58,523 nucleotides of DNA, taken from Thermoplasmata archaeon (GTDB taxonomy: Archaea > Thermoplasmatota > Thermoplasmata > Lutacidiplasmatales > SKW197). Below are positions 14,853 through 41,220 of this stretch, piece by piece; the stretch's first letter is position 1; each line of letters begins with the position of its first letter. The notes beneath the pieces are model-generated. The model saw only the letters and a list, made by a program, of their open reading frames with translations. It did no database searches and had not been told where the DNA came from. The translations under genes were made by a program, and so were the position numbers. Location of the stretch: the NCBI GenBank assembly GCA_049970095.1, contig JBMFNP010000004.1, positions 1 to 58,523 of the forward strand, given 5' to 3'.

Positions 14853-14946
14853 GCGGTTGTAGTCTAGTGGTTAGGACTGAGGCTTCCCAAGAACATTTAC
14901 ACGGGAAAAGCCTCTAGCCCGGGTTCGAATCCCGGCAACCGCACCA
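14853..14946 (+). tRNA. tRNA-Gly (anticodon CCC) with a 19-nt intron at the canonical 37/38 site; CCA encoded
   Basis: Acceptor stem gcggttg/caaccgc. Anticodon stem gaggc/gcctc interrupted after ttccca. T-arm ccggg-ttcgaat-cccgg. Ends in acca. Confidence 0.85.
14890..14908 (+). other. tRNA-Gly intron (boundaries ambiguous by 1 nt)
   Basis: The insert agaacatttacacgggaaa lies between anticodon-loop positions 37 and 38. ttccc can pair with intron gggaa, as expected for a bulge-helix-bulge substrate. Confidence 0.7.
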
Positions 14947-14978: not shown

Positions 14979-15584
14979 ATGAAAACCCAGCAACAGGCCC
15001 TCCACAAAATTTACCTTTCTAATTATAGGATAGTGGATGCATGTGGGAGCATCCTTGTGGATACCCCTGAAATCCTGGAATTCTTTGACAAACTTTCAGC
15101 AAATATTGCAGATATTGATACAATATACATTGTTGATATGGACGGTTTTGATGAAGGCACACCCCAACTTGACCTTCTTTCGGAAATTTCAGATATGCTT
15201 TCTATCTGGGTTGAAGCAAATTCCAAGAATGTAGATGATGTTTCTGATATTCTCGTTGCAGGTGCTGACATTGCGGTGCTCAACCTCAAAAATCTCGCTC
15301 TTGATGAAATCCAGAAAATCTGTGAGGAAACCCAGAGTGTGGCATTTTTGATTGATGATGTAAACCCTGAGAGAGAAAAACTGGATTACCTAACAAAGTT
15401 AGCAAGGGAAGAGAAATGCGAAGTAATTCTTAGATGTGCGGGGGAGATTCCCTCATTTCTTGAGAACTACTTGAAAGAAATACCAGTTTATTTAGATGGC
15501 GGTGGGATGGCAGATGTAGATTTGCGCTGGAAAAAAATAAATATTGCAGGAACAATCAAGGAGCTGGATTTGGATGGTGTATGA
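14979..15584 (+). CDS. Hypothetical protein, possibly a HisA/HisF-like (beta/alpha)-barrel relative
   Basis: IYIVDMDGFDEGTPQLDLL...ILVAGADIAVLN loosely resembles the HisA/HisF DLDGA...G and GAD motifs. The assignment is weak. Confidence 0.5.
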   Translation: MKTQQQALHKIYLSNYRIVDACGSILVDTPEILEFFDKLSANIADIDTIYIVDMDGFDEGTPQLDLLSEISDMLSIWVEANSKNVDDVSDILVAGADIAVLNLKNLALDEIQKICEETQSVAFLIDDVNPEREKLDYLTKLAREEKCEVILRCAGEIPSFLENYLKEIPVYLDGGGMADVDLRWKKINIAGTIKELDLDGV

Positions 15585-20739: not shown

Positions 20740-21804
20740 ATGGAAAATGCAATTGTGTACTGTGAGGGAAAATTCGGGACATACACAGGCAAAACTGCAA
20801 ATGGACTTGTTAGATACTCAAAGCGTTTCAAAATTTGTGGTGTGATTGACAGCAGAAATGCTGGAAAAGATGCGGGTGAAGTTTTAGATGGAGTGAAAAA
20901 GGGAATTCCCATATATCCATCACTTGAAAGTGCGCTGGCAGATACAGAAAATGTAAAGTACTTCATAATAGGCGTGGCAACAATAGGAGGACTTTTACCA
21001 CCGGAATACCGAGAGGTTGTGAAAAAGGCAATTGAACACAAACTCAACATTGTTTCTGGGCTTCATGAATATCTTTCTGAAGACAAAGAACTCACTGCAC
21101 TGGCTGAGAAATACGGGATAAATCTAATAGATGTGAGAAAACCAAAACCATTAAAGGAGATGCACCAATTCCGAAATCTTTCAAAAACTCTGCAATGCCT
21201 CAGAATTCCTGTGCTTGGCACAGATGGTTCTATAGGTAAGAGAACCACTGCCCTCATACTTACAGACGCACTGAATGCCAGTGGAATAAAAACTGTTTTT
21301 GTAGCTACAGGGCAAACAGGGTTGATGCAGGGCTCTGAATATGGTGTTCCATTAGATTCAATTAAGGGAGATTACATGGTGGGGGAGCTGGAGGCAGAAA
21401 TCGTAAGAGCATACAACGAAAAGAAGCCAGATGTAATTGTGGTTGAAGGGCAGGGGAGTATCTCACATCCGGCATATGTATGCGGCACAAGGGCAATTAT
21501 AATGGCTGCGCAGCCTACTGGTATCGTTTGCCAGCATGCACCAAAAAGAAAATACAGAAACTTTGGAAAGGATACATTGAAACTCCCGATGCCAGACCTC
21601 CACAAAGAAATCGCAATGCTTGAAATGTTTTCTGAGGCAAAGGTTTTTGCAATAACCTTGAACCATGAAAATATGACAAAAGAGGAAGTGGAAGAGTATG
21701 TAAAAATTTACGAAAAAGATTTTGGCCTGCCCTGCTGTGATGTGCTTCTACACGGTGCTGCAAAGATAGTGGAGGCAATAAAGAGAATGCTTGGCAGAGC
21801 ATAG
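20740..21804 (+). CDS. DUF1611-family protein (P-loop-like GTDGSIGKRTT)
   Basis: Length and motifs fit DUF1611. The last 97 nt are overlapped antisense by the giant gene. Confidence 0.75.
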   Translation: MENAIVYCEGKFGTYTGKTANGLVRYSKRFKICGVIDSRNAGKDAGEVLDGVKKGIPIYPSLESALADTENVKYFIIGVATIGGLLPPEYREVVKKAIEHKLNIVSGLHEYLSEDKELTALAEKYGINLIDVRKPKPLKEMHQFRNLSKTLQCLRIPVLGTDGSIGKRTTALILTDALNASGIKTVFVATGQTGLMQGSEYGVPLDSIKGDYMVGELEAEIVRAYNEKKPDVIVVEGQGSISHPAYVCGTRAIIMAAQPTGIVCQHAPKRKYRNFGKDTLKLPMPDLHKEIAMLEMFSEAKVFAITLNHENMTKEEVEEYVKIYEKDFGLPCCDVLLHGAAKIVEAIKRMLGRA

Positions 21805-24800
21805 CCAGTGAATCCAGGGGCTGACAAACCTTTTTGTGAGTGCACAATTGCTGCTGCGTTCTCAGTATTTTGCTGGATGGCTTGTGTGCTGGGTGTTGAG
21901 GAAATTGGTTGCTCAGGTGCGTGTGTCTGGAGAGCCTCTATCTTCTGTGTTTGCTGTGCGCCATGAATTATTGTCTCCCCGAACACCTTGAGGTCATCAA
22001 TGTAAAGGCCACCAAAGCCCACATTGCTTGCATAGTGGTTTTGCAGTGTTGAATTTGTGACTACACGGAATCGTAGCAGAATTACAGAACCTCTCCAGCC
22101 TGATAAATCCACATTCAACCTGTAGAGTGATTTTGCAGGTACCCAGTATTGCTTGTCTCCAGGTTCGGTTATGCCTGTATAACTTGTGCCTGATGGCATT
22201 CCTTGTTGCGTTCCCTCTGTACCCGATACATTCCAACCGCTACGCACTCCCAGACAAATTGGCTGCCAGCTAACTCCGTTATCTGCACTCACCTCTACCC
22301 TGAACCCATCTGGAGGTCTCCCTGTGCCCTGTGTTCCCCAGTTTATATTGAATCTGAAGTAGGCAGCAAGTGTAGCATTTCTCGCATTTGTGAGGTCTAT
22401 AGGTCTTGTAATCAAGCTGTTATCAATTCCTCCGCTAAAGTATCCAGTATTGGTATTACCATTCCACCAGACACCCACACCTCTGTGCGCCCTATTACTG
22501 TCCTGCACATACACCCACTGGTCTGCTATGTTTGCAGTATTACTAACACTGTTCTTTCTTGTAATCTTTACCTCCACATCATCTATGTACCAATAACCAT
22601 TCGCACCTGCACCACCAAAAAGATACTGGAAAGCAACCTTTATCTGTCTGCTACCACTTGAAGGAATGTACTTTGTGAGGTTGACTTCGCCATATTCCCA
22701 GTCCCCAGAGCCTCCTCCACTGTTTCCAGAATACACCCAGTTTATCCAGTTCCCATAACCATCCCTGAACATAAACAGGAGGGTGTTTGTAGGATAGGGT
22801 TTTGTGGGGTTTACATACTCATATCTCCACCCACTATCACTAGTGCCCACCATTATTATGCCACCATTGAAAAAGGGAACTAAACTGAACTTATGATAGA
22901 ATGAAAGCGTTGCAGATTCCATGCTTGCGTCAAGGGTGATTGCAGGTGTCTGTGTGTAATTACACCCATCAGTATCCTTTGGCTGATAGAGATCTATTAC
23001 AAGGGGTTGTGGAGAGTTGTGTGCCATTGGTACAATTCCTGCACCTCCGCCTCCGCCAACGAGAGTTGCACCTTCAAATGGGAGAATTGTGTGTATCCAG
23101 CAGTTACCTCCACCTCCAAATATATAAAGAAACCTGCTAGTGGCAGAATACTGCCATGCATAGTTATTGTCACCGAAGTGTGTATGTCTTTCATCTATTG
23201 TTGTGGATGGATTGTCTGCCACATTGTTGAGCTGCCACACAATTGAACCGCCTTCTGCGAAAGAGATGCTATCAATTCCAAAATATCCACCATTTCCTAC
23301 ATTTGCCTGGAATGAAATTCTGTGTGCACCCCATGGTAGAGAAATTGGCCCACTTACTGGTTGCCAGCTACCACTATCCATCCTATACTGAATATTACTG
23401 ATTGTGCCTGATGTTGTGTAAGTGAGTGTGAAATTGAATGTGCTAACATAGTCAATGCTATTTGAGTTGACATTTGCGTTGGCAGTGCTACCCAATATCG
23501 GTAAACTTGGATTTATTGTTACTGTATCTCCTTTTCCAAAGGTGAAGTGCTGATACTCGTTCTGAAGAAGCACATCTTTGGAAGGTACACCGTACACACA
23601 TGGAGAGCCAATTGTATAATGCCCTGGTGTTTCATCACTTGGCACATACTGAACTACAGAATCCACACCAAAGGTATCCGGTGAGTAATAACCAGTATAA
23701 TCTGTGCTGAAAGAAGTACCGCTAAACTGGTCCTGTCCAAAAATCACACGAACTGGTTGTGTTGATGTAATGTGGAACACATGGAGGTTACTATCGCCTG
23801 GTGGGTTGTTTCTGCTAATCACATAGAAACTTTTTGCAGGCACCGTAGCACTTCCGCTCCATGAACCCCCTGCAATTTCCTGAACTGTAACAGTTGCTGC
23901 TGCATTGTTAGGATTTGCTATATAAAATCTCCAGGGCCAGGAGCCCACAGACTTGTAGGTAACACAGTAGTGCTCTGTATCAAGTGAATTTCCACTGACA
24001 CCCATTGCATTATCAATCTCATCATTGTCATTTGAAAGCCGATATAGAATAATATCATTTGTTGCTGTTACATTTGCATAGACAGTGTAATGCCCTGCAT
24101 TCAGTCTTGCCTCACCCCATGCACCCTTACCATTAAGTGTTAGCGTATCTGTTTCAATTACATTTCCATTTTGGTAATTTATCCATCTCACAGTTACGGT
24201 TGTGCTCACTGCAGCAGGATTTATTGCAACCACATGTGTCTCCCAACCAAGCCTATTCCTTATATCTCCCATCACCACGAAATTTTTTCCTATACCCATA
24301 CCATTCTCCCAGTTCGCACAGTTCACATTTGAACCCTCACTTGAAGTTACAACAATCAGCATCGGACCATTGGAAATCACCTTGTAAACTGTCTCTGCGT
24401 TCTGATTCTCATATAATCTTATCTGCCCTGGATTTGTCGTGTTCACATCTATCCTGTCCCATTTAGGTGTAGTTCTGTCAAATCTCCAGAGCGTGTAATT
24501 TGAGGTTTTGTTCACACCCACAAAATAGAAACCCTGATGAAAGCCTGTGGGATCCCATGGGTCAATTGGAAGATAAAATTCATAAATGAAAGGAACCTCA
24601 CCTGCAGGTTCTATCATTCCAAATGCGTTTGGATATGTGTGATAAGTTTTATTTGTGATTGAAAATCCGTGGAGTTTTGTAGTAGCTTTGTCCCAGCCAT
24701 CCCAGTATCTACTTACATATGTATTTACATCGCCTCCGGGGTCAAGATACTCAATTGGAGATTCGCCATTAATTCGCACAACCGTTGCCTCGTGCTTCCA

Positions 24801-27800
24801 GTTCCTTAATATTCTCTGAGTGTCCTCAAGGTCATCATAGAAGTAATACACCTCAATTCTCTGCTCTGCCATATTGTTCGGACGCAGGGGCTCAATTCCA
24901 ATCAGCAACCCCTCTGGGTCTATATGTGCCCTTATTGGCTCAATACCTGCAAACAGTGGTGTCCAGATAACCTCTGCAGTAATCTTGCCATTCTGTGCCT
25001 GTCCATATGCATCCTTATAGCTTGCAGGCACATGCACATTCTGCGAGCCAATTACAGTGTCTCCATCAAGGAAGCGCACAATCACATCTGCATCCCTGCC
25101 ACCCCAATTCGTGAGATTTGCTTTTAGCACATAGGATTCTCCAAGCTGGGGGTTCAATTCTGGCAGAATTATGTACTGTCTCGTGTTTGTGGCTGCAAAA
25201 ATGTCTGGTGGTGTTACTCTCAGTTCTGGCTTGTTGTCCAATTTCCCAAACCAGTGAATTATGCCGTAAAGGAAATCTGCAACTGCGCTGATATTTGTTG
25301 TGTATGCAAGATCAAATGAAAGATAGGCAGCGTGCCAGCTTGCGGGATTTGCTATTCCTGTGCCTACCACATTGTCGCTTGTTCTTGCCCAATAACTTGT
25401 GCCATCTGCCCAGAACAACGGAATTGCATCAGCAATCCTTGTATATGCTCTTACATTATAGGGAGAAAGGGAGGTGTTATCAAAGTTCATGTAAATTCCA
25501 TTTGTCACTGCGTTCTCAAGAACTCCATATACACCTGAACGCTGAACAGTTGTCCCTGTGCTGCTTGCACCCAGTACATTCTGGTAGAAATCTGGTCTTG
25601 CCTGAACAGTGGTATCCGCAAGCACATTTTTCCCGATAAGGAGGAATGAAACCTGGTCCAAGCCTGTATTCAGATAACTCTCAATTACATTAATATCATT
25701 GTTTGTGAGTGTGTTGTAGCCGCTACCGCTTGTGCAGTTCCCTGTAATCCAAATGATGCAACTGTAGTTTGATGCATTGTAAGCAGTATTATCTCTATCT
25801 ACACCTCTTGGTACCTTCTGGATATCCATATCTGTGCCATTCACATATCCCAACGATGTAAGGGCATTAATTACATACTGGGCTACATTTGGGAGCGTTC
25901 CCCCTCCTCCATTTTCCGATGAGGAATCATCGTCCACAACCAACACAGTATATATTACTTCAAGTGTGTAAACACCCACATCTGAAACATACACATTGTT
26001 TGCCTCATTTGTCTCATCTATCTCATTGTCAGGGTCAACAACCACTTTTACAATGTAGCTCCCAACTTTATCCGGAACCCACTGGAATTTTATCAGTTTC
26101 CAGCTTCCATTGCCTGGCAGATCCGTCACATTATCCAGTAATGTTTTCGGCTGGTCATTTATGTACAGCCTAGTTCTAACATTTGTAAGATTTACATCTC
26201 CATTGTTTCTTATCACTGCTGTAATATTAACTGGCTGATTGTATCTGGGTTTAAGTGGTGAAATTGTCTGCCCTGCAACCGCTACATCCTTTCCTGAACG
26301 CATGTCTATTCCTCCAAGCCAGTTAATTACTTTGTAAACTGTAACTGCCTGGTCCCCTGTATCGTTCATGGTTGCAAATTCAAATCCAAAAACCACACTC
26401 CTGTACTCATTATTACTGCTCCCAATTGCTTTATACTGGTATGCTAAAATTCTGGTATTCGTACTATCATTAAACAATGGCTTTGAGCCAGAAACAGGGT
26501 TCAATTGTCTGGCAATTGTAAATGGACTTCTGCTCTGCAACGAAGGATTAAAGCCTGAGGTGTCTATCCATCCCATGCCCGGATTTGTGCCTACAAGTGA
26601 GGAGGGCAGAGGAACTGTACTACTAATACCTCCACCTACCTTGTTGGTAAACCAGGAAGGCACACCTTCAAATATGTTCTGACCAATCAGCCACAATCTA
26701 CCACCGTTATCAAGGAATGTGTTAAGGCTAGTTTGGTCACCTGTGGTCAGGGTGTTATTTGTGCTTCCACCCATCCAGATCACCACATCATAATCTCTCA
26801 GTTTTTTATCGCCTGTGTTGTACCCAGGCCCATCTGCGCCCCCAGATACCACTGCAATATCATATCTGAGATTTGCGGAAAGGAGGGCAGCAGCCATATA
26901 TGAAACAACATCATTACTGCTCCCAGTAAGGGCACCATCATCGTCAACTAACAGAATTTTTGGGGTGACCACAACCGTGATGTTGGCACCCACACCATTC
27001 AGCTTACCTGGCATCACATCTGTAATATTAACCACAATTTTGTGCACACCTCCTGGTTTTGCCTCCCAGTACGCGAAGGCAAGGCTCTGCCCGTAACCCG
27101 CAACAGAGAAGTTTGTAATTGTGTAATTCCATATCTCCCTGCCATCAAAATAATCCCTAAATGTGATATTTGAAGATTCCGCAGCCCTTGCCTTCATATT
27201 CTTAATTACCGCTGTGATGGTAACATTGTCGCCTCTCGTGGGTGAATGGTTGCTTAAAATAATTCTGTCAACAACAAGCAGGGGTAAACCCTCACCAGTA
27301 ATCACATTTATTGTAATCTGAGCAATGGACTTGTGGCTCTTGTTGTCCGTGGCATTGATTATGCCTGTGTATTTGCCTGGGAGTACTGAGGGAGAAAGCG
27401 AGAGATTGTCTGTCATGAATTTCCAGCCACCAGTGTGGTTCATTTTTATAGGAGTTTTGAATGTGGTATTGTCCAATTTCCAGAGGTCTATGTATACGGA
27501 GTCGTAGTTGAGGTCACTATCTTTAACAATTACCCATACCTTGAAAGATTTGCCTGTCTCCACAATTTCAGGCTCGGTGCCCCTTTCCAGGATTTGTGGA
27601 GGTGCATTTATATCTTTTCCAGGGAGAACTCCCTGCCACACAATCAGGTTTTTCACATTATCAATCACCTGGACTGTAACATTGGAAATAACTGAATGAG
27701 TGGTTGGCGTCTTCCATCTCCATACCTCACCAGGCTCCCAGAAATCACCAAGGTTAACAAGGGAATCAGAGACATTTCTTATAAACACCGCAGGAGGTAA

Positions 27801-28109
27801 TGTATCTGTCAGGGTGATTACGATAGTTATCATGTCTTTTGAAAGGGGTTCTCCACCTTTATGTGTGAGGTTTATGTAATACCTATATGAGGGCACATTC
27901 CCAATACTCTCATCCCCTATTCCCAGTTCTCCAATTATTTCTACATTGCGTTTTCCTTCGGGTGGAGGTAATGTCTGTATCCATACAAAAATCGTGCTGA
28001 ACAGCGTCACTGTTATTCCCAGAATCAACAGCGTTGCTATCACTTCCGAAACACCTTTCCTTGCTCTCTTCCACATTCTTACATTTTTATTCTTCATTTT
28101 TCTCACCAC
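21708..28109 (-). CDS. Giant surface protein 1 (2133 aa): class III (type IV pilin-like) signal peptide, CARDB-like domains, two jelly-roll (MAM-like) domains, PGF-CTERM-like tail
   Basis: Uninterrupted 6.4-kb ORF. The N-terminus KRARKG/VSEVIATLLILGITVTLFSTIF is pilin-type. CARDB-type DPDNEIDETNEANNV is present. Domain ends read GYWYIDDVEVK and GLYIDDLKVFGE. The tail is SAPGFTGYALPSILFIASTIFAAPCR. The likely true start is ATG 28097, behind GGTGGTGA. Confidence 0.9.
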   Translation of the reverse strand: MVRKMKNKNVRMWKRARKGVSEVIATLLILGITVTLFSTIFVWIQTLPPPEGKRNVEIIGELGIGDESIGNVPSYRYYINLTHKGGEPLSKDMITIVITLTDTLPPAVFIRNVSDSLVNLGDFWEPGEVWRWKTPTTHSVISNVTVQVIDNVKNLIVWQGVLPGKDINAPPQILERGTEPEIVETGKSFKVWVIVKDSDLNYDSVYIDLWKLDNTTFKTPIKMNHTGGWKFMTDNLSLSPSVLPGKYTGIINATDNKSHKSIAQITINVITGEGLPLLVVDRIILSNHSPTRGDNVTITAVIKNMKARAAESSNITFRDYFDGREIWNYTITNFSVAGYGQSLAFAYWEAKPGGVHKIVVNITDVMPGKLNGVGANITVVVTPKILLVDDDGALTGSSNDVVSYMAAALLSANLRYDIAVVSGGADGPGYNTGDKKLRDYDVVIWMGGSTNNTLTTGDQTSLNTFLDNGGRLWLIGQNIFEGVPSWFTNKVGGGISSTVPLPSSLVGTNPGMGWIDTSGFNPSLQSRSPFTIARQLNPVSGSKPLFNDSTNTRILAYQYKAIGSSNNEYRSVVFGFEFATMNDTGDQAVTVYKVINWLGGIDMRSGKDVAVAGQTISPLKPRYNQPVNITAVIRNNGDVNLTNVRTRLYINDQPKTLLDNVTDLPGNGSWKLIKFQWVPDKVGSYIVKVVVDPDNEIDETNEANNVYVSDVGVYTLEVIYTVLVVDDDSSSENGGGGTLPNVAQYVINALTSLGYVNGTDMDIQKVPRGVDRDNTAYNASNYSCIIWITGNCTSGSGYNTLTNNDINVIESYLNTGLDQVSFLLIGKNVLADTTVQARPDFYQNVLGASSTGTTVQRSGVYGVLENAVTNGIYMNFDNTSLSPYNVRAYTRIADAIPLFWADGTSYWARTSDNVVGTGIANPASWHAAYLSFDLAYTTNISAVADFLYGIIHWFGKLDNKPELRVTPPDIFAATNTRQYIILPELNPQLGESYVLKANLTNWGGRDADVIVRFLDGDTVIGSQNVHVPASYKDAYGQAQNGKITAEVIWTPLFAGIEPIRAHIDPEGLLIGIEPLRPNNMAEQRIEVYYFYDDLEDTQRILRNWKHEATVVRINGESPIEYLDPGGDVNTYVSRYWDGWDKATTKLHGFSITNKTYHTYPNAFGMIEPAGEVPFIYEFYLPIDPWDPTGFHQGFYFVGVNKTSNYTLWRFDRTTPKWDRIDVNTTNPGQIRLYENQNAETVYKVISNGPMLIVVTSSEGSNVNCANWENGMGIGKNFVVMGDIRNRLGWETHVVAINPAAVSTTVTVRWINYQNGNVIETDTLTLNGKGAWGEARLNAGHYTVYANVTATNDIILYRLSNDNDEIDNAMGVSGNSLDTEHYCVTYKSVGSWPWRFYIANPNNAAATVTVQEIAGGSWSGSATVPAKSFYVISRNNPPGDSNLHVFHITSTQPVRVIFGQDQFSGTSFSTDYTGYYSPDTFGVDSVVQYVPSDETPGHYTIGSPCVYGVPSKDVLLQNEYQHFTFGKGDTVTINPSLPILGSTANANVNSNSIDYVSTFNFTLTYTTSGTISNIQYRMDSGSWQPVSGPISLPWGAHRISFQANVGNGGYFGIDSISFAEGGSIVWQLNNVADNPSTTIDERHTHFGDNNYAWQYSATSRFLYIFGGGGNCWIHTILPFEGATLVGGGGGAGIVPMAHNSPQPLVIDLYQPKDTDGCNYTQTPAITLDASMESATLSFYHKFSLVPFFNGGIIMVGTSDSGWRYEYVNPTKPYPTNTLLFMFRDGYGNWINWVYSGNSGGGSGDWEYGEVNLTKYIPSSGSRQIKVAFQYLFGGAGANGYWYIDDVEVKITRKNSVSNTANIADQWVYVQDSNRAHRGVGVWWNGNTNTGYFSGGIDNSLITRPIDLTNARNATLAAYFRFNINWGTQGTGRPPDGFRVEVSADNGVSWQPICLGVRSGWNVSGTEGTQQGMPSGTSYTGITEPGDKQYWVPAKSLYRLNVDLSGWRGSVILLRFRVVTNSTLQNHYASNVGFGGLYIDDLKVFGETIIHGAQQTQKIEALQTHAPEQPISSTPSTQAIQQNTENAAAIVHSQKGLSAPGFTGYALPSILFIASTIFAAPCRSTSQQGRPKSFS
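21949..25339. repeat. Direct repeat copy A (3391 nt), over 99% identical to 28343..31736
   Basis: Constant offset of 6397 nt (6394 before a 3-nt indel). Duplicated shadow ORFs in the six-frame track confirm it, as does a base-by-base comparison of both ends. Confidence 0.95.
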
Positions 28110-31100
28110 CTTTTATTTTTACAATTTTTGCATTTCTGGTCTGCAATAAAGAAAGAATTCCAAGCAAAAAATAATAAAAAGAATCACCAAAAGAAGGATT
28201 AGTAATTCTAGTGCTCGCAACAACTGGTGATGGCACTCCTCCTTCTCCAGAGCACTTTTCCATTTGCTCTTCTGTTGTGTGGCCATTGCATTCTTCTCTT
28301 ATAATCTCCGATAATTTCTGTGTTTGCGTCTGTGTTTGTACAGTTTGCTGTGCGCCATGAATTATTGTCTCCCCGAACACCTTGAGGTCATCAATGTAAA
28401 GGCCACCAAAGCCCACAGTGTTGCTTGCATAGTGGTTTTGCAGTGTTGAATTTGTGACTACACGGAATCGTAGCAGAATTACAGAACCTCTCCAGCCTGA
28501 TAAATCCACATTCAACCTATAGAGTGATTTTGCAGGTACCCAGTATTGCTTGTCTCCAGGTTCGGTTATGCCTGTATAACTTGTGCCTGATGGCATTCCT
28601 GGTTGCGTTCCCTCTGTACCCGATACATTCCAACCGCTACGCACTCCCAGACAAATTGGCTGCCAGCTAACTCCGTTATCTGCACTCACCTCTACCCTGA
28701 ACCCATCTGGAGGTCTCCCAGAACCACCAACACCCCAGTTTATATTGAATCTGAAGTAGGCAGCAAGTGTAGCATTTCTCGCATTTGTGAGGTCTATAGG
28801 TCTTGTAATCAAGCTGTTATCAATTCCTCCGCTAAAGTATCCAGTATTGGTATTACCATTCCACCAGACACCCACACCTCTGTGCGCCCTATTACTGTCC
28901 TGCACATACACCCACTGGTCTGCTATGTTTGCAGTATTACTAACACTGTTCTTTCTTGTAATCTTTACCTCCACATCATCTATGTACCAATAACCATTCG
29001 CACCTGCACCACCAAAAAGATACTGGAAAGCAACCTTTATCTGTCTGCTACCACTTGAAGGAATGTACTTTGTGAGGTTGACTTCGCCATATTCCCAGTC
29101 CCCAGAGCCTCCTCCACTGTTTCCAGAATACACCCAGTTTATCCAGTTCCCATAACCATCCCTGAACATAAACAGGAGGGTGTTTGTAGGATAGGGTTTT
29201 GTGGGGTTTACATACTCATATCTCCACCCACTATCACTAGTGCCCACCATTATTATGCCACCATTGAAAAAGGGAACTAAACTGAACTTATGATAGAATG
29301 AAAGCGTTGCAGATTCCATGCTTGCGTCAAGGGTGATTGCAGGTGTCTGTGTGTAATTACACCCATCAGTATCCTTTGGCTGATAGAGATCTATTACAAG
29401 GGGTTGTGGAGAGTTGTGTGCCATTGGTACAATTCCTGCACCTCCGCCTCCGCCAACGAGAGTTGCACCTTCAAATGGGAGAATTGTGTGTATCCAGCAG
29501 TTACCTCCACCTCCAAATATATAAAGAAACCTGCTAGTGGCAGAATACTGCCATGCATAGTTATTGTCACCGAAGTGTGTATGTCTTTCATCTATTGTTG
29601 TGGATGGATTGTCTGCCACATTGTTGAGCTGCCACACAATTGAACCGCCTTCTGCGAAAGAGATGCTATCAATTCCAAAATATCCACCATTTCCTACATT
29701 TGCCTGGAATGAAATTCTGTGTGCACCCCATGGTAGAGAAATTGGCCCACTTACTGGTTGCCAGCTACCACTATCCATCCTATACTGAATATTACTGATT
29801 GTGCCTGATGTTGTGTAAGTGAGTGTGAAATTGAATGTGCTAACATAGTCAATGCTATTTGAGTTGACATTTGCGTTGGCAGTGCTACCCAATATCGGTA
29901 AACTTGGATTTATTGTTACTGTATCTCCTTTTCCAAAGGTGAAGTGCTGATACTCGTTCTGAAGAAGCACATCTTTGGAAGGTACACCGTACACACATGG
30001 AGAGCCAATTGTATAATGCCCTGGTGTTTCATCACTTGGCACATACTGAACTACAGAATCCACACCAAAGGTATCCGGTGAGTAATAACCAGTATAATCT
30101 GTGCTGAAAGAAGTACCGCTAAACTGGTCCTGTCCAAAAATCACACGAACTGGTTGTGTTGATGTAATGTGGAACACATGGAGGTTACTATCGCCTGGTG
30201 GGTTGTTTCTGCTAATCACATAGAAACTTTTTGCAGGCACCGTAGCACTTCCGCTCCATGAACCCCCTGCAATTTCCTGAACTGTAACAGTTGCTGCTGC
30301 ATTGTTAGGATTTGCTATATAAAATCTCCAGGGCCAGGAGCCCACAGACTTGTAGGTAACACAGTAGTGCTCTGTATCAAGTGAATTTCCACTGACACCC
30401 ATTGCATTATCAATCTCATCATTGTCATTTGAAAGCCGATATAGAATAATATCATTTGTTGCTGTTACATTTGCATAGACAGTGTAATGCCCTGCATTCA
30501 GTCTTGCCTCACCCCATGCACCCTTACCATTAAGTGTTAGCGTATCTGTTTCAATTACATTTCCATTTTGGTAATTTATCCATCTCACAGTTACGGTTGT
30601 GCTCACTGCAGCAGGATTTATTGCAACCACATGTGTCTCCCAACCAAGCCTATTCCTTATATCTCCCATCACCACGAAATTTTTTCCTATACCCATACCA
30701 TTCTCCCAGTTCGCACAGTTCACATTTGAACCCTCACTTGAAGTTACAACAATCAGCATCGGACCATTGGAAATCACCTTGTAAACTGTCTCTGCGTTCT
30801 GATTCTCATATAATCTTATCTGCCCTGGATTTGTCGTGTTCACATCTATCCTGTCCCATTTAGGTGTAGTTCTGTCAAATCTCCAGAGCGTGTAATTTGA
30901 GGTTTTGTTCACACCCACAAAATAGAAACCCTGATGAAAGCCTGTGGGATCCCATGGGTCAATTGGAAGATAAAATTCATAAATGAAAGGAACCTCACCT
31001 GCAGGTTCTATCATTCCAAATGCGTTTGGATATGTGTGATAAGTTTTATTTGTGATTGAAAATCCGTGGAGTTTTGTAGTAGCTTTGTCCCAGCCATCCC

Positions 31101-34100
31101 AGTATCTACTTACATATGTATTTACATCGCCTCCGGGGTCAAGATACTCAATTGGAGATTCGCCATTAATTCGCACAACCGTTGCCTCGTGCTTCCAGTT
31201 CCTTAATATTCTCTGAGTGTCCTCAAGGTCATCATAGAAGTAATACACCTCAATTCTCTGCTCTGCCATATTGTTCGGACGCAGGGGTTCAATTCCAATC
31301 AGCAACCCCTCTGGGTCTATATGTGCCCTTATCGGCTCAATACCTGCAAACAGGGGTGTCCAGATAACCTCTGCAGTAATCTTGCCATTCTGTGCCTGTC
31401 CATATGCATCCTTATAGCTTGCAGGCACATGCACATTCTGCGAGCCAATTACAGTGTCTCCATCAAGGAAGCGCACAATCACATCTGCATCCCTGCCACC
31501 CCAATTCGTGATATTTGCTTTTAGCACATAGGATTCTCCAAGCTGGGGGTTCAATTCTGGCAGAATTATGTACTGTCTCGTGTTTGTGGCTGCAAAAATG
31601 TCTGGTGGTGTTACTCTCAGTTCTGGCTTGTTGTCCAATTTCCCAAACCAGTGAATTATGCCGTAAAGGAAATCTGCAACTGCGCTGATATTTGTTGTGT
31701 ATGCAAGATCAAATGAAAGATAGGCAGCGTGCCAGCCTGCACTATCTCTCAGCGCTGTGCCTACTACATTGTCACTTGTTCTTGACCAAAAACTTGTGGC
31801 ATTTGCCCAGAATAAGGGCATTGCAGATGTGGTGTTTCTGTAACTCCTTACCCAGTAATTTCCTGCAAAGCTTGTGTTTGAAAGTGAAAATGAAATTCCA
31901 TTGGTGATTGCGTTTTCGCGTACCCCATATATTGGGGTAGTCATCTGGAAGGATGTTGCCCCAGAAATATCCGCACCCAGATAATCTCTTTTGAATGTAA
32001 TATCTACAGCACTATCTGAAAGCACACTTCTCCCAACCAGGAGGAAGGATGTCTGGGAGGGAGCACTTGCAAGATAAGCCCTGATATCGTGCACATCATC
32101 GGCTGTGAGTGTATTTGTAGATGTACCTCCAGTACTCCCTGCAGCCCCTGTAAGCCAGATCACGGTATTATAATTCACGAGCGGATAATTTGTCTGGTTT
32201 CTACTCTGACCAGCAGGCACCCAATCAATATCCATGTTCATACCCTTGACATAACCGAGCTGCGTCAGGGCGTTTACTACATGAGTGCCCACATCTGGCA
32301 GACTTGTAGTGTTAGATGAATCATCATCTACTACAAGGATCGTGTAAATTACCTCTATTGCAAACACCCCGATCTCGCTCACAAAAACATTATTCTGTTC
32401 ATTTGTCTCTTCAATTTCATCCTTAGGGTCTATCATTGCCTTTATTACATATTCCCCAACCGCTGGTGGTGTCCATATAAATGGAGGGAGCGTCTTTGAA
32501 TCCCCGTTCGGCTGTAAGGTAACAATCTGCAGGAGGGCGGGCTCAAGTTTTCCATTTATTATGAGCCCTACCTCGGTGGTCTGCGCACTGTTTCCATTGT
32601 TTCTCACGGTTACATTTATGTAAATTGGCTGGTTGTACCTTGGCTTCAGTGGTGCGATAGTCTGCCCTGAGACCGCAAGGTCCTCTCCACTTCTGTTATT
32701 TATCCCTCCAAGCCAGTTAACAATGAGGTATGCAGCCACCGCCTGATCTCCTGTCTCTTTCATTCTTCCAATATCAAACGCTGTCACCACCACCCTGTAT
32801 TCATACACCCCAGCAACGCTCTTGTACTGTGTCGCAAGAACATTTATCATGTTATCATCTGTAAGGAGAGTTTTTGCTGTGCTTACAGTGAGCTTTCTGG
32901 CTATTGTAAATGGAGGATACGAAACAATCACTGGATTCAGATTCGTGGCATTTATCCACCCTGTGCCAGGGTATGCACCCTTCATGCTAGCAGGCAACGG
33001 AACTGTAGATACACTGCTAATACCAAACATTGCATACAGTGGATTTGCACCTTCTAAGATATTCTGTCCTATGAGCCATACCCTACCCCCATTATTCATA
33101 AACCTTGTAAGGTTGTTCTGGTCGTTGGTAGTGAGTGTGTTGTTGTCTTTACCACCAACCCAGATTACCACATCGTAATCCTTCAATTGCTTCTCACCAC
33201 TATCATATTTGGGCCCATCTGCACCTGAGGGCACTATAACAGTATCAAATTTAATGTTTGTGGCTAAGAGTGCTGAGGACACATTGCTTGCACAATCACC
33301 AGATGCACCTGCAATTACACCATCATCATCCACAAGAAGAATTTTTGGGGTCACAATTACCGTGATGTTTCCACTTCTGCCTATTAAATTACCAGGCATT
33401 ACCTCTGTGATTCTCACTTCAATCGTGTGCAAACCACCAGGAGATGCAACCCAGTCAATGAAAGCGAGGCTCTGTCCATAAGCGGGTACCGAGAAATTGG
33501 TGACACTGCCCAGGTATGTCCATATACCGCTATCATTATAATAATCCCAGAATGAAATGTTTGATGATTCTGCAGCCCTTTTTCCGCCATTTTTAATCAC
33601 TGCAGTTATTGTCACCTTTTCACCACGTGGTGGTGCACCATCTGAAAGTTCAATTTTCTCCACATATAGCTTCGGAAATCCCTCTCCAGAAACAATGCTA
33701 AGGTACATAAGGGCAGAGCTGTTGTGCCCCTTCATATCCACAGCCCATACCTTTACAATAAATCTGCCAGGTTCCATATTGTCACTCAGGATAAGATTTT
33801 CAGTTTCAAATTTCCAGCCTATAGTGTGCTTCATTTTTATTGGCACAGGAAATCTAACAGAGTCAACAGAGGAGAGATTAACATAAACTGAATCATAATC
33901 CAGGTCTATGTCCTTTACCACAACCCATATTCTGAACTCCTTTTCAATTATAATCGGGTCAGGTGTTGAACCCCTCTCAGTAATTTCTGGGGGTTCATCT
34001 GGAATCTCACCTGTAAGTCTGCACTGCCATACAATTAAATTTTTCACAGTGTTAACAATTGTAATTGTCACATCAGAGACGAATGTTTTGCTCACACTCC

Positions 34101-34476
34101 ATGACCACACATCGCCAGGTTCAAGTGTGTTCTTTGCAATCCCGTCTGTGATATTAAGGGTATATACGGAATTATCAGAGATAACAGTGATGTAGATTTT
34201 TGTTGAGTGATTGAAAAGTGGTTCCCCGTTCAGATGCGTCATGTTGATGTAGTAGGTGAAAGGCCCCGCTCCTTTTATCTCCAAGCTGGCTTTCAGCTCT
34301 GTTTTAGGTGCACTCTGGGGTGGAGGCATTGCCTGCACCCACATGAAAATCGTGGAAAAGAGTGTCACGGTGATTGCAAGAATCAGAATCTGGGCTATAA
34401 CCTCAGAAATTCCACTCCTATTGCTCCTGAAAGGTATCCTCTTTCCCCGCTCACTGGAATTACCTTTTTCTTTCAT
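28087..34476 (-). CDS. Giant surface protein 2 (2129 aa), paralog of protein 1: class III signal peptide, same domain order, different C-terminal hydrophobic tail
   Basis: Uninterrupted 6.4-kb ORF. The N-terminus FRSNRSG/ISEVIAQILILAITVTLFSTIF is pilin-type. The tail is NPSFGDSFYYFLLGILSLLQTRNAK. GGTGA lies 4 nt upstream of ATG 34476. Confidence 0.9.
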   Translation of the reverse strand: MKEKGNSSERGKRIPFRSNRSGISEVIAQILILAITVTLFSTIFMWVQAMPPPQSAPKTELKASLEIKGAGPFTYYINMTHLNGEPLFNHSTKIYITVISDNSVYTLNITDGIAKNTLEPGDVWSWSVSKTFVSDVTITIVNTVKNLIVWQCRLTGEIPDEPPEITERGSTPDPIIIEKEFRIWVVVKDIDLDYDSVYVNLSSVDSVRFPVPIKMKHTIGWKFETENLILSDNMEPGRFIVKVWAVDMKGHNSSALMYLSIVSGEGFPKLYVEKIELSDGAPPRGEKVTITAVIKNGGKRAAESSNISFWDYYNDSGIWTYLGSVTNFSVPAYGQSLAFIDWVASPGGLHTIEVRITEVMPGNLIGRSGNITVIVTPKILLVDDDGVIAGASGDCASNVSSALLATNIKFDTVIVPSGADGPKYDSGEKQLKDYDVVIWVGGKDNNTLTTNDQNNLTRFMNNGGRVWLIGQNILEGANPLYAMFGISSVSTVPLPASMKGAYPGTGWINATNLNPVIVSYPPFTIARKLTVSTAKTLLTDDNMINVLATQYKSVAGVYEYRVVVTAFDIGRMKETGDQAVAAYLIVNWLGGINNRSGEDLAVSGQTIAPLKPRYNQPIYINVTVRNNGNSAQTTEVGLIINGKLEPALLQIVTLQPNGDSKTLPPFIWTPPAVGEYVIKAMIDPKDEIEETNEQNNVFVSEIGVFAIEVIYTILVVDDDSSNTTSLPDVGTHVVNALTQLGYVKGMNMDIDWVPAGQSRNQTNYPLVNYNTVIWLTGAAGSTGGTSTNTLTADDVHDIRAYLASAPSQTSFLLVGRSVLSDSAVDITFKRDYLGADISGATSFQMTTPIYGVRENAITNGISFSLSNTSFAGNYWVRSYRNTTSAMPLFWANATSFWSRTSDNVVGTALRDSAGWHAAYLSFDLAYTTNISAVADFLYGIIHWFGKLDNKPELRVTPPDIFAATNTRQYIILPELNPQLGESYVLKANITNWGGRDADVIVRFLDGDTVIGSQNVHVPASYKDAYGQAQNGKITAEVIWTPLFAGIEPIRAHIDPEGLLIGIEPLRPNNMAEQRIEVYYFYDDLEDTQRILRNWKHEATVVRINGESPIEYLDPGGDVNTYVSRYWDGWDKATTKLHGFSITNKTYHTYPNAFGMIEPAGEVPFIYEFYLPIDPWDPTGFHQGFYFVGVNKTSNYTLWRFDRTTPKWDRIDVNTTNPGQIRLYENQNAETVYKVISNGPMLIVVTSSEGSNVNCANWENGMGIGKNFVVMGDIRNRLGWETHVVAINPAAVSTTVTVRWINYQNGNVIETDTLTLNGKGAWGEARLNAGHYTVYANVTATNDIILYRLSNDNDEIDNAMGVSGNSLDTEHYCVTYKSVGSWPWRFYIANPNNAAATVTVQEIAGGSWSGSATVPAKSFYVISRNNPPGDSNLHVFHITSTQPVRVIFGQDQFSGTSFSTDYTGYYSPDTFGVDSVVQYVPSDETPGHYTIGSPCVYGVPSKDVLLQNEYQHFTFGKGDTVTINPSLPILGSTANANVNSNSIDYVSTFNFTLTYTTSGTISNIQYRMDSGSWQPVSGPISLPWGAHRISFQANVGNGGYFGIDSISFAEGGSIVWQLNNVADNPSTTIDERHTHFGDNNYAWQYSATSRFLYIFGGGGNCWIHTILPFEGATLVGGGGGAGIVPMAHNSPQPLVIDLYQPKDTDGCNYTQTPAITLDASMESATLSFYHKFSLVPFFNGGIIMVGTSDSGWRYEYVNPTKPYPTNTLLFMFRDGYGNWINWVYSGNSGGGSGDWEYGEVNLTKYIPSSGSRQIKVAFQYLFGGAGANGYWYIDDVEVKITRKNSVSNTANIADQWVYVQDSNRAHRGVGVWWNGNTNTGYFSGGIDNSLITRPIDLTNARNATLAAYFRFNINWGVGGSGRPPDGFRVEVSADNGVSWQPICLGVRSGWNVSGTEGTQPGMPSGTSYTGITEPGDKQYWVPAKSLYRLNVDLSGWRGSVILLRFRVVTNSTLQNHYASNTVGFGGLYIDDLKVFGETIIHGAQQTVQTQTQTQKLSEIIREECNGHTTEEQMEKCSGEGGVPSPVVASTRITNPSFGDSFYYFLLGILSLLQTRNAKIVKIKGGEKNEE
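28343..31736. repeat. Direct repeat copy B (3394 nt)
   Basis: See copy A. Confidence 0.95.
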
Positions 34477-34506
34477 GCGCTCACCATTGGGAGTATCTAC
34501 TTTTCC

Positions 34507-34516
34507 CTATATATAC
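34507..34516 (-). promoter_or_regulatory. TATA-like box upstream of giant gene 2
   Basis: gtatatatag on the minus strand, 31-40 nt upstream of ATG 34476. Confidence 0.35.
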
Positions 34517-34642: not shown

Positions 34643-35560
34643 GTGCAAGATGTGGAACTCTCTGTAAAAATTGGAGGATTAAAACTCAAAAATCCTCTGA
34701 TAGCTGCCTCTGGAATTCTGGATAGTTCTGCAGAGAGTATGGTGCGGGTGGCTTCCGCAGGTGCTGCGGCCGTGGTAACGAAATCCATAGGAATTGAGAA
34801 GAGAGATGGATATGAAAACCCGGTTATTTTTGAATTTGAACATGGCGTAATTAATGCAATGGGATTACCAAATCCTGGTATTGAAAACTTTGGTGAAGAA
34901 ATGAGAAAACTGAGAGCATTTAAGGTGAGAGTAATTGGTAGTATTTTCGGAAAGAATGAAGAGGAATTTGCATATCTTGCTAAGAAGATGGAAGAATATG
35001 GTGCATGTGCTCTGGAGTTAAATTTAAGTTGTCCACATGCAAAGGGGTATGGAATGGAAGTGGGGCGAAACCCTGTCCTTGTCAAAAGTATTGTAAAGGC
35101 TGTCAAAAAGAATGTGAAAATTCCTGTGTTTGTAAAACTTACGCCCAATGTTTCAGACATAGTGGAAATCGGAAAGGCTGCTGAAAAAGGAGGCGCAGAT
35201 GCAGTGGTGGCAATTAACACGCTCCGAGGAACGAGAATAGATATTGAGTTTAAAAGAAGCGTGATTAGTGCTGGAATAGGAGGATATAGTGGTCCGGGTA
35301 TTCTGCCAGTAGGAATAAGATGTGTTTATGAACTAAAAAAGGAACTGAAAATTCAGATTATAGGGTGTGGGGGAATTGAAAAATGGGAAGATGTGATTGA
35401 GTATATACTGGCTGGTGCGTCTGCAGTGCAGATTGGCACAGCACTCAGAAAAAATATAGAGATTTTCGGGACAATATCATCAGGAATAAAGAGTTATATG
35501 CAGAAACATGGATTCACAAAATTGGAGGAGGTTGTGGGACTTGCATGTAGAAATTCTTGA
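34643..35560 (+). CDS. pyrD: Dihydroorotate dehydrogenase (class 1B) catalytic subunit
   Basis: LKLKNPLIAASG, NLSCPH and GGI...D motifs. GTG start, with tttatat at ~34615. Confidence 0.92.
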   Translation: MQDVELSVKIGGLKLKNPLIAASGILDSSAESMVRVASAGAAAVVTKSIGIEKRDGYENPVIFEFEHGVINAMGLPNPGIENFGEEMRKLRAFKVRVIGSIFGKNEEEFAYLAKKMEEYGACALELNLSCPHAKGYGMEVGRNPVLVKSIVKAVKKNVKIPVFVKLTPNVSDIVEIGKAAEKGGADAVVAINTLRGTRIDIEFKRSVISAGIGGYSGPGILPVGIRCVYELKKELKIQIIGCGGIEKWEDVIEYILAGASAVQIGTALRKNIEIFGTISSGIKSYMQKHGFTKLEEVVGLACRNS

Positions 35561-39340: not shown

Positions 39341-39535
39341 TCACCAAAAGATATTATTAAAAAAGCAGTATTTAAGTTTTTCTATCTATGGGGGAAGGTA
39401 GAAAAATGTATATGTTCCCCACTTTCCAGAAAAATTCTTATAGTACCTACCAATTTTTCTACACCACCACAAAATCAAAAGGTTAATATATCGCTACTTC
39501 ATATTCCACCCAAAGCGTCAGGGCAGGTGAACGCA

Positions 39536-41206
39536 ATGAACAAAACTAATGCTTACATAAAAGCACTTCTCTTCGGAACACTTCTGGTTATCTCAATTTT
39601 GCCCGGATATCTGGCAGAAAACGATGTGCCAGTTCCAGAAAATACTGTGGTATATCAGGACCACGATGTGTTTGTATCTCACCAACTCCCGATAAATTTT
39701 AGCATGGTACTGATAGATGCTGCCGGGGCATACATCAATCACAATATCTCAGCAAGGATGGATGACGACTCATTTCTTTCTATTACTGTTAAAGATAATG
39801 CTTTTTTCCAGATAAATGCAACAGGTTCGCTAGACCTCAGAAACAATGTAACAATGATATTTGAAGGAAATTCCTCTCTGATAATTAATGGTGGGCTTTT
39901 GAATGTTTCTGAGAACGCAACTCTTATTGTTAAAGAAAATGCAAAAATAATGATAAGTGACATGGGGAGATTGCAAATATATGGGAAGTATGAGATTGCC
40001 TGCGATTTGTTCTCAATAAAAAATGCACAGATATCTGGGTTATACCTCAACAATGCAAATCAGATAAGTTTAAAATCCGCTGACCTTGGGGATTTCAACA
40101 TTTCTAAATGCACTCAATTTAGTGCGGAAGATAGCCAGATCTCCAATGTAGAAATCTCTAGCCTGAGTAATTTTCGTGCAACAAACACACTGTCTGAAAA
40201 ATCAATCTCTGGGCTTCTTATCAGAAATGTGGAGAATTTTTCTATAGAAGATGTGAACCTCCAAATGGCCACAATAGACAACTGCACAAACTTCACTGCC
40301 AGGTCAATGTTTTCAGCAAATATATCTAAACTTACTCTCTCCCATCTTAATAAATTCGTGCTGGATGGATACAACGCAAGCAATCTTACAGTACATGCAA
40401 ATGAAGTGAGCATAAGAAACTCAAGAATAAAGGGAAATGATGGGGAGCTGAGCACACTAACAGAAGCAATGAACTTTTCAATTTCTGAGAGCTACTTTGA
40501 AAGGGGCCTCACATTTGGTGCCTCTTCAAATGTTACCATTGTAAATGCAACCATTCCTATGATAAAAGCTACAGAAAATGCCAGCATTGAGATTTATGGC
40601 TGGGCAGCCTCAAAGGAAGTAGATAAGGATAAATTCGAAGCCCAGAACATAATTGTCACGGAGAATGCAAGCGTGAAAATTTATAGATGGCTTACTGTCC
40701 AGGTTGTAAGTGCAAATAATACCCCTTTGATGGGTGCAACTGTGGTGATCATTGATACAACTGGAAAAAATGAAGTTGCAAGGAATGTGACAAATTCCTC
40801 AGGAGTTGCTGTATTTCCATTATACGCTGAAAAAATCACATGTGTTAATGGCTCAAACTATGATGTGTTCCAGGGCTGGTACACCGTAAAGGTAACATAT
40901 GAAGATTACAAATCAAACCCAGAAGCACATCCTGCAATAATGAATGATTCCATCACCGTAAAGTTCGTAATTGAAAAACCTGCGCCACCTCCACCTGACA
41001 ATATCTGGATTATTGCAGGTATTATTGTAGTGATAATCATTGTGCTCCTCCTTACCTACTACTTCTTCTACATGACAAAGAAAACTAAAGAGGAAATCGT
41101 GAGCGAACCCAAAAAGGAGAAAAAGGAAGAATGGCGCACTGAAGTAAAACCGAAATTCAAGGAGCCGCCCAAAGAATGGTCTGAGAAAAAGGAAAAAGAA
41201 GAATAG
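39536..41206 (+). CDS. Secreted, C-terminally anchored surface protein: beta-helix-like N-rich repeats plus a carboxypeptidase-regulatory-like domain
   Basis: Sec-type signal (KALLFGTLLVISILPGYLA). About 25 N-x-S/T sequons. Includes VQVVSANNTPLMGATVVIID...SGVAVFPL. Ends with PPPP, a TM helix (IWIIAGIIVVIIIVLLLTYYFF) and a K/E tail. Confidence 0.8.
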   Translation: MNKTNAYIKALLFGTLLVISILPGYLAENDVPVPENTVVYQDHDVFVSHQLPINFSMVLIDAAGAYINHNISARMDDDSFLSITVKDNAFFQINATGSLDLRNNVTMIFEGNSSLIINGGLLNVSENATLIVKENAKIMISDMGRLQIYGKYEIACDLFSIKNAQISGLYLNNANQISLKSADLGDFNISKCTQFSAEDSQISNVEISSLSNFRATNTLSEKSISGLLIRNVENFSIEDVNLQMATIDNCTNFTARSMFSANISKLTLSHLNKFVLDGYNASNLTVHANEVSIRNSRIKGNDGELSTLTEAMNFSISESYFERGLTFGASSNVTIVNATIPMIKATENASIEIYGWAASKEVDKDKFEAQNIIVTENASVKIYRWLTVQVVSANNTPLMGATVVIIDTTGKNEVARNVTNSSGVAVFPLYAEKITCVNGSNYDVFQGWYTVKVTYEDYKSNPEAHPAIMNDSITVKFVIEKPAPPPPDNIWIIAGIIVVIIIVLLLTYYFFYMTKKTKEEIVSEPKKEKKEEWRTEVKPKFKEPPKEWSEKKEKEE

Positions 41207-41220
41207 CAGTGTGTGTTGCA

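Follow-up and report, generated by a model that had tools for sequence, protein, structure and literature searches.

Two overlapping genes of a Thermoplasmata archaeon encode giant modular pilin-like proteins that are candidate surface adhesins

We examined a 58,523-nt stretch of DNA from a Thermoplasmata archaeon (GenBank assembly GCA_049970095.1, contig JBMFNP010000004.1), which we call the window. Two neighbouring genes in it, referred to here as A and B, each encode a protein of ~2,130 amino acids (aa) and ~230 kDa that begins like a type IV pilin. Little is known about the cell surfaces of the Thermoplasmata, most of which have never been cultured. An earlier reading of the same sequence (the original prediction) suggested that the pair are giant adhesins or tip subunits of an uncharacterised archaeal surface structure. 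We found that A and B each consist of a pilin module followed by domains that are not specific to pilus biology (CARDB, alpha/beta and MAM-like), and that they belong to a large family of archaeal proteins built in the same way.

Results

A and B overlap and look like one operon

Genes A (28087-34476) and B (21708-28097) are translationally coupled open reading frames (ORFs), arranged in tandem on the minus strand. They were found, as originally described, between DUF1611 (20740-21804, plus strand), which converges on gene B, and pyrD (34643-35560, plus strand; pyrD-pyrK), which diverges from gene A. Gene A starts with an ATG and encodes 2129 aa. The maximal ORF of gene B takes a GTG at 28109 as its start (21708-28109, 2133 aa), and the most likely start is the ATG at 28097, from which the product is also 2129 aa. 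The Shine-Dalgarno-like GGTGGTGA stands ahead of this ATG, from which gene B shares its first 11 nt with the last codons of gene A. The orthologous pair in the metagenome-assembled genome (MAG) L001 has an identical 11-nt overlap, and its second protein begins MKNRNRSLKKG/VSDV (here and below, a slash marks the predicted cleavage site). Upstream of the gene A ATG (34481-34516, minus strand), putative operon signals can be read from the sequence as a TATA-like GTATATATAG (34516-34507) and a GGTGA (34485-34481). Because of the 11-nt overlap, the Shine-Dalgarno-like element and these two upstream signals, A and B look like one operon. A scan for sigma-70-type promoters and terminators upstream of gene A was uninformative, the organism being an archaeon.

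Both proteins begin with a type IV pilin module

The class III signal and pilin helix that had been noticed at both N-termini are recognised by a curated model: the two proteins score 40.6 and 40.8 bits with Pfam Pilin_N (PF07790), for which the gathering cut-off is 25.2. With TIGR02537 (cut-off 20), B scores above the cut-off (21.8 bits) and A below it (12.9 bits). In A, the basic leader of the class III signal ends in ...FRSNRSG (aa 1-22, 34411-34476, minus strand) and is followed by the pilin module (34012-34410, minus strand), which consists of the hydrophobic helix ISEVIAQILILAITVTLFSTIF... and a beta-sandwich head (aa 60-155). In B, the basic leader MKNKNVRMWKRARKG (28053-28097, minus strand) is followed by a predicted cut before VSEVIATLLILGITVTLFSTIF. 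The motif suggests that a prepilin peptidase cleaves both proteins after a Gly (G22 in A and G15 in B, counted from the ATG); the context of the site is RSG/ISEV in A, with Arg at -3, and RKG/VSEV in B. In an AlphaFold2 (AF2) model of A aa 1-930, with a mean predicted local distance difference test score (pLDDT) of 81.6, a helix at 20-49 is followed by a beta-sandwich at 60-155, which in this model is the layout of an archaeal pilin.

When we aligned these positions across 88 N-termini of the family described below, we found G (67/88) or A (21/88) at position -1, V at +1 (77/88), S at +2 (80/88), E (77/88) or D (11/88) at +3 and G at +6 (79/88). In close and distant homologues, the basic leader and the G or A at -1 are followed by V-S-E/D-[VIA]-[VIL]-G and then ~20 hydrophobic residues. 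Since the motif is kept in both close and distant homologues, it does not stem from a misplaced start, and the concern that orthologues might start downstream of the helix did not materialise. A hidden Markov model of the family-specific N-terminus, run against all six-frame ORFs of the window, matched A and B only.

Domains behind the pilin module

Behind the pilin module, A has an immunoglobulin (Ig)-like domain (aa 180-262) and a first CARDB-like domain (aa 270-376; the two together at 33349-33939, minus strand, as are all further coordinates within A and B). These are followed by alpha/beta module 1 (aa 377-590, 32707-33348), with the pattern ILLVDDDG...YDVVIW.GG...WLIGQN, a CARDB domain (aa 599-698, 32383-32682), alpha/beta module 2 (aa 706-925, 31702-32361) and a third CARDB-like domain (aa ~950-1060, 31297-31629). 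The Ig-like domain, the first CARDB-like domain and the two alpha/beta modules are delimited by the AF2 model, which bears out the earlier proposal that an alpha/beta module occurs twice together with CARDB, and places CARDB or CARDB-like domains before and between the modules. One CARDB domain per protein is well above the Pfam cut-off (PF07705, cut-off 22.7; 76.9 bits in A and 75.3 bits in B, where it lies at 25989-26270), and CARDB domains (2kl6, 3idu) were all that a sequence search of the PDB returned for A and B. The third CARDB-like domain resembles the PF1109 CARDB (TMt 0.63-0.68) and is placed at aa ~983-1054 by Foldseek with the low-confidence model of the C-terminal half.

For the alpha/beta modules, a 16-segment profile had no match among PDB sequences, and in Pfam we found only sub-threshold GATase1-like matches (ThuA, DUF4350, GLMA_2nd). 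Their invariant residues are L, V, D, Y, W and G, and because none is His, Cys or Ser, the modules are probably non-catalytic. In neither protein do Pfam and NCBIfam detect a catalytic, DUF2341 or PilY domain. Pfam also finds no VWA domain in either, so no such recognised adhesive module is present in the pair itself.

A beta-rich middle block (aa ~1061-1699, 29380-31296), for which the model is of low confidence, separates this scaffold from the C-terminal tandem jelly rolls (aa 1700-2045 of A, 28342-29379; 21948-22982 in B). Two unrelated proteins that share the middle block (P0138 and P0140) provided no useful domain. The first jelly roll resembles InhA-like MAM and the second is reelin-subrepeat-B-like with an Asp-box. 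With the model InhA-like_MAM (PF20773, cut-off 26.9), full-length A and B score 20.3 and 20.8 bits, below the cut-off, and the isolated A module scores 27.9 bits; this model matches the first jelly roll in 9 of 11 family members, and Reelin_subrepeat-B matches the second in 8 of 11, below threshold. A Foldseek search with the low-confidence model of the pair returned a tandem CBM22 pair as the best match and then the MAM proteins meprin, enteropeptidase and PTPRK. Of the two identities first suggested for these jelly rolls, MAM-like is tentatively backed by the InhA-like MAM scores, and choice-of-anchor-J has no NCBIfam match.

Homology to a curated or solved S-layer or protease family, which had been named as a point to check, was found by none of Pfam, NCBIfam and the PDB sequence search. 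The N-terminal model of A, taken whole, retrieved only generic multi-Ig proteins with Foldseek at a template modelling (TM) score of ~0.1, the top one being a Haloferax S-layer protein. The "dozens" of N-x-S/T sequons reported earlier amount to 35 and 40 in the two proteins, compared to 24 and 26 expected from shuffles, which is a modest enrichment; judging from these sites, A and B are probably N-glycosylated.

A conserved jelly-roll pair is the hallmark of a large family

To define the family, we used aa 919-2080 of A, leaving out the N-terminus, as a phmmer query against 1.84 billion representatives. We found 224 matches at E <= 0.001, 150 of them below 1e-30, and the family comprises at least 224 clusters at 50% identity. 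The part common to its members is the C-terminal jelly-roll pair of ~330 aa, which is the hallmark of the family and forms the C-terminal end, or lies close to it, in proteins whose length reaches 2,968 aa. Among the 100 matches of at least 1,400 aa, 80 have the class III N-terminus ([KR]..[GA]/VSE[VI][VI]G helix), and most of the others look truncated. A giant cargo on a pilin-type N-terminus, which the original prediction had considered exceptional, is thus the rule in this family. Its plan is a conserved pilin module, a scaffold of Ig/CARDB and alpha/beta domains, a variable middle and a conserved distal jelly-roll pair. Many relatives have a true VWA domain in the middle region; in P0004, P0006 and P0012 it scores above threshold.

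All matches with a named source come from Thermoplasmata, Thermoplasmatota or Euryarchaeota MAGs, and the only annotations in the family are "CARDB domain-containing", "VWA domain-containing", "type IV pilin" and "FlaG/FlaF family". In a literature search, we found no published description of this giant family or of DUF7289, a family of pilin-like proteins encoded beside it in some relatives. Near the P0001 gene, the same organism encodes a 1874-aa giant surface protein with Peptidase_C11, Big_7, CARDB and Peptidase_M14 (L004 1336-6960), and an MCM gene with an intein (Intein_splicing, LAGLIDADG_3; L007 18602-21844) lies near the stand-alone member P0018.

A recent gene conversion probably made the C-terminal halves of A and B nearly identical

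The relation of A to B changes abruptly along their length, a mosaic that is absent from the original prediction. The two proteins are ~50% identical over aa 1 to ~900 and unrelated over their last ~85 residues, and between these regions we found a 3,483-nt stretch that is 98.9% identical and includes 2,555 consecutive nt without a mismatch. The tract lies at 28343-31825 in A (mismatch-free part 28733-31287) and at 21949-25428 in B (mismatch-free part 22336-24890). A is the orthologue of P0002, with 72% identity. The N-terminal half of B is 75% identical to its orthologue in L001 (1865 aa), which lacks a middle block of ~510 aa, and it is this block that the tract supplies to B. Given 98.9% identity over 3.48 kb, the simplest reading is a recent gene conversion from A to B that would also have altered the architecture of B. 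With the C-terminal 1,160 aa of A copied into B, most of the differences within the pair would fall in the tails and the first 900 aa.

Near-identical C-terminal halves could also be an assembly artefact, in which the reads of one copy were used twice. Such an artefact would fit the 2,555 nt without a single mismatch, and related assemblies break in or beside the tract region (L004, L011 and the fragment P0112). However, the tandem pair and its flanks are kept in three independent MAGs, and the tract ends have scattered mismatches and a 3-nt indel with both reading frames intact. In addition, the syntenic pair in L001, in which the paralogues are otherwise 55-65% identical, has its own 650-nt tract at 90% identity, which indicates that conversion occurs in this locus. 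We consider an artefact quite improbable.

C-terminal tails differ between members

A ends in a tail (aa 2046-2129, 28090-28341) in which the aromatic hydrophobic stretch FYYFLLGILSLL is followed by a Lys-rich end. Tails of this type are common to P0001 and P0002, and their hydrophobicity is weaker than that of clear transmembrane helices. The hydrophobic tail of B, ...LPSILFIASTIFAAPCRSTSQQGRPKSFS, is encoded in part on DNA that it shares with the flanking gene: its last 32 codons (21708-21804) overlap the 3' end of DUF1611 on the plus strand. B and its L001 orthologue share the tail ...IFIASTI.AAPC.R.SQQGRPKSFS, and in L001 the overlap with DUF1611 is 88 nt (15395-15482). Because the B tail is encoded opposite DUF1611, its conservation is confounded and may reflect DUF1611. 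The earlier idea of a PGF-CTERM signal has to be given up, since the tails of A, B and the L001 orthologue have no NCBIfam match to PGF-CTERM or another sorting signal, even at E <= 10.

In the family as a whole, 73 of the 149 members with a complete C-terminal module end no more than 25 residues after the jelly roll. Eight full-length giants of 2,000-2,730 aa (P0079, P0061, P0038, P0097, P0090, P0072, P0070 and P0058) combine a class III N-terminus with a C-terminal transmembrane helix and an Arg-rich tail. From their sequences, both ends of these giants would be in the membrane, which none of the explanations discussed below accounts for.

Some distant relatives are encoded beside a type IV filament motor

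Giant genes form tandem arrays of two or three in 9 of the 10 contexts examined, and the A-B pair adjoining DUF1611 is kept in three MAGs (L001-L003). In L009/L010 and in L013, two or three proteins of ~290-310 aa, some annotated as DUF7289, are encoded next after the array, and in L009 all three of them have class III-like N-termini. In L014, L015 and L016, the genes form a string of giant, giant, ~550-aa DUF7289-like protein, ~330-360-aa DUF7289 protein, PilB3-type T2SSE ATPase and two T2SSF proteins, with the machinery downstream of the giants at L014 8095-15415, L015 8181-15277 and L016 8247-15283. The ATPase of these relatives matches the models of both the N- and the C-terminal domain of PilB3. 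In three further species (L097, L098 and L100), the ATPase gene is immediately preceded by the C-terminal module of a giant and two DUF7289 ORFs. Six loci of distant relatives in all therefore combine giants with two DUF7289 proteins and a PilB3-type ATPase; pilin-like DUF7289 N-termini were read in two of the six, and PilC-like T2SSF genes are annotated in the three that carry gene calls (L014-L016). Thus, the link between the giants and a type IV filament motor is real and restricted to a sub-lineage.

Some further observations were made at these loci. In the L014-L016 strings, no small major pilin gene is visible, and in L014 and L015 an ORF of 45-47 aa lies between the two DUF7289 genes. 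L012 (1-3027 and 10001-26555) has three giant members in tandem and, further upstream on the opposite strand with six genes between, a gene for a 1404-aa FG-GAP/transglutaminase-core protein. The neighbourhood of L005 was reached through a DUF7289 protein search and a contig look-up, and a metagenome scan with the partial PilB of L005 to extend this locus found nothing.

Other genes in the window

The remaining window is archaeal housekeeping, with an intron-containing tRNA-Trp, TFB, HisRS, GlnA, SHMT, DnaK and gyrase. The tRNA-Trp(CCA) gene (14853-14946, 94 nt including the intron) supports the archaeal origin of the DNA. A GyrB search of the genome collection did not help to place the organism, as its only matches were 59-68% identical and spread over many phyla, and the genome of the window was not among the GTDB species representatives. 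Two adjacent ORFs at 39527-42912 encode a 559-aa protein with only a weak CarboxypepD_reg match and a 567-aa protein of the alkaline-phosphatase superfamily (Phosphodiest, PglZ and Sulfatase matches), and these may be further surface or envelope proteins. Several zinc ribbons are present in a 475-aa protein (7557-8984, Pfam matches) and in a 374-aa protein (13726-14850) that has CxxC pairs and a long Glu/Lys-rich region. In L001-L003, genes for a 271-aa protein, Lactamase_B_3, a nitroreductase and Ham1 lie directly beyond DUF1611 (L001 16557-19113), and the counterparts of this block in the window (998-2736; compared stretch 62-2736) are ~19 kb away. This displacement of ~19 kb points to a local rearrangement between the lineages.

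Discussion

We favour, with moderate confidence, the view that A and B form a two-gene operon of giant, modular pilin-like surface adhesins; the cleavage, glycosylation, assembly, adhesion and ligand that belong to this view are what we infer. Each giant would be inserted into the membrane via its class III signal, and a prepilin peptidase encoded elsewhere would cut after the Gly (G22/ISEV in A, G15/VSEV in B). The remaining helix and the beta-sandwich head (aa ~23-155) would form the pilin module, which may either retain the protein in the membrane or dock it onto a short type IV filament-like assembly that a PilB/PilC motor would build using DUF7289 pilin-like proteins. The Ig/CARDB domains and non-catalytic alpha/beta modules would then act as a stalk that bears the lineage-specific middle block, and the distal MAM/CBM-like jelly-roll pair would bind a ligand, possibly a glycan.

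Several observations weigh against this view. The window contains no pilus ATPase, no platform protein, no prepilin peptidase and no further pilin-like ORF. The relatives that are linked to machinery have only ~26% identity with A across the N-terminal half. In 25 of 28 related PilB3 loci, a giant gene is missing within 8 kb, and P0018 is a single giant gene among housekeeping genes. In the signal of A, Ser stands in place of Lys/Arg at -2, a slight deviation. The middle block (aa ~1061-1699) has no match in Pfam or the PDB, and AF2 models the C-terminal half poorly (pLDDT 49.6). About 20 members have an unambiguous C-terminal transmembrane helix and an Arg-rich tail, and A and B have hydrophobic tails with basic ends; neither feature is easily squared with release into a filament. 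It is these tails that speak most strongly against a simple location at a pilus tip. The original prediction of an adhesin of a type IV filament thus survives in part: the giants/DUF7289/PilB3 strings at six loci of relatives speak for it, and the lack of machinery in the window speaks against it.

The alternative that fares best is that A and B are envelope proteins, in which the pilin-like helix, cleaved or not, is only a membrane anchor, as in ArlF/ArlG or the class III binding proteins of Sulfolobus. They would then belong to a glycoprotein coat or S-layer substitute, and in part of the family the C-terminal transmembrane helix would be a second anchor. The C-terminal transmembrane helices and RRR tails of ~20 members, full-length class III proteins among them, and the hydrophobic, basic-ended tails of A and B fit a membrane-anchored envelope protein better than a tip location. 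Neither the window nor the syntenic MAGs L001-L003 contain assembly machinery, which also speaks for this alternative. Studied Thermoplasmatales have no S-layer and are reported to have an unordered glycoprotein layer of unidentified composition (PMC12448462). The Haloferax S-layer protein that heads the Foldseek list for the N-terminal model is in keeping with such a role, although at TM ~0.1 it is a generic multi-Ig match, and A and B have no sequence relation to solved or curated S-layer families. In addition, the ever-acidic +3 and the G/A at -1 resemble a processed, assembling pilin more than a plain anchor, and in several species the giants stand in an operon-like string with PilB, PilC and DUF7289. 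Half of the family ends at the jelly roll without a C-terminal anchor, and the conservation of the B tail, encoded opposite DUF1611, is maybe incidental. Taken together, we regard an envelope protein of this kind as possible, though less likely than an adhesin.

A bolder and rather doubtful extension is that the giants are the main cargo or subunits of a dedicated and undescribed surface organelle of the Thermoplasmata. PilB3/PilC, together with DUF7289 proteins (two or three of them), would then assemble a short filament or pseudopilus, on which two or three distinct giants of ~230 kDa would be presented via their pilin helices. Members that are also anchored at the C-terminus could be tethered at both ends and form a pilin-anchored cell coat. 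In the lineage of the window, the cargo genes would have become separated from the motor and would diversify by gene conversion between paralogues.

Finally, a secreted or surface enzyme (protease or glycoside-active), with catalytic alpha/beta modules of the GATase1/ThuA or caspase/gingipain type and jelly rolls as carbohydrate-binding modules, is very improbable: the weak ThuA, DUF4350 and GLMA_2nd matches, a Foldseek match to PorU and the likeness of the jelly rolls to CBM22 and to the MAM domains of metalloproteases suggest it, but every enzyme-family match is far below threshold, the alpha/beta profile has no PDB match and no invariant His, Cys or Ser, and Pfam and NCBIfam find no catalytic domain in A or B.

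The family (1,400-2,970 aa, with a pilin head, a variable effector region, often VWA, and a conserved jelly-roll pair) is a concrete candidate for the means by which these archaea attach to surfaces or partner cells. In the relatives, the string of giants, DUF7289, PilB and PilC offers an operon in which a possible new display system derived from type IV filaments can be tested, and the tract shared by A and B would be an example of giant paralogues that exchange large cassettes.

Comparison with known systems

The giants share strings of Ig-like domains and sequons with archaeal S-layer and surface glycoproteins such as Haloferax csg (PDB 7ptp), and part of the family also shares the hydrophobic C-terminal segment with a basic tail. 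In contrast to these glycoproteins, the giants have a class III instead of a Sec-type signal, and there is no homology between the two and no PGF-CTERM match.

The bindosome of Sulfolobus, which Szabo et al. and Zolghadr et al. are said to have described in 2007, reportedly consists of sugar-binding proteins with class III signals that work with BasABC/BasEF. As a functional analogue, it would have in common with the giants a large non-pilin cargo on a prepilin-type signal, a dedicated pair of ATPase and platform proteins with small pilin-like proteins, and retention at the surface without a long pilus. Unlike the bindosome proteins, A and B have no solute-binding domain and no linked transporter, and the giants are four to five times larger and come from another phylum.

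Adhesins encoded in archaeal filament loci are a closer comparison in genetic context. According to a 2026 census (bioRxiv 10.64898/2026.04.22.720090), filament loci of archaeal system 2 include large adhesin-like proteins, and PilY-like DUF2341 proteins occur in Methanococci (PMC4858521). As with the giants, these are large multi-Ig proteins encoded with PilB/PilC-type genes and several pilin-like genes. However, the published descriptions of them are general, DUF2341 and PilY domains are absent from A and B, and system 2 has a single platform gene according to the preprint (bioRxiv 10.64898/2026.04.22.720090), whereas the platform of our relatives is split into two T2SSF genes. Thermoplasmata loci of the giant/DUF7289/PilB3 type are described in neither of these two sources (bioRxiv 10.64898/2026.04.22.720090; PMC4858521).

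The giants most resemble the modular pilins of bacteria. In Streptococcus sanguinis, PilB is a modular type IV pilin with a vWA module and PilC has a lectin module; modular pilins of up to 860 residues are cited (PMC8179133). Both there and here, a class III signal and pilin module stand in front and functional modules are grafted behind; the VWA domains in relatives of A and B parallel the vWA of PilB, the jelly rolls parallel a lectin/CBM-like module, and the proposed role is adhesive. The differences are that A and B have the archaeal Pilin_N (PF07790) whereas the bacterial proteins are of the IPR012902 type, that the giants have 2,100-2,900 aa and many modules whereas PilB is much smaller and modular pilins have one or two, that giant genes form tandem paralogue arrays, and that part of the family has C-terminal anchors. 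A and B themselves also differ in having no VWA and no adjacent machinery. The concept of a modular pilin is already known, and what is new is that these proteins are archaeal, have 2,100-2,900 aa, share a conserved C-terminal jelly-roll pair and occur in tandem arrays. With this family, the modular pilin principle, so far represented by small minor pilins of bacteria, reaches archaeal proteins that exceed them in size about three to five times.

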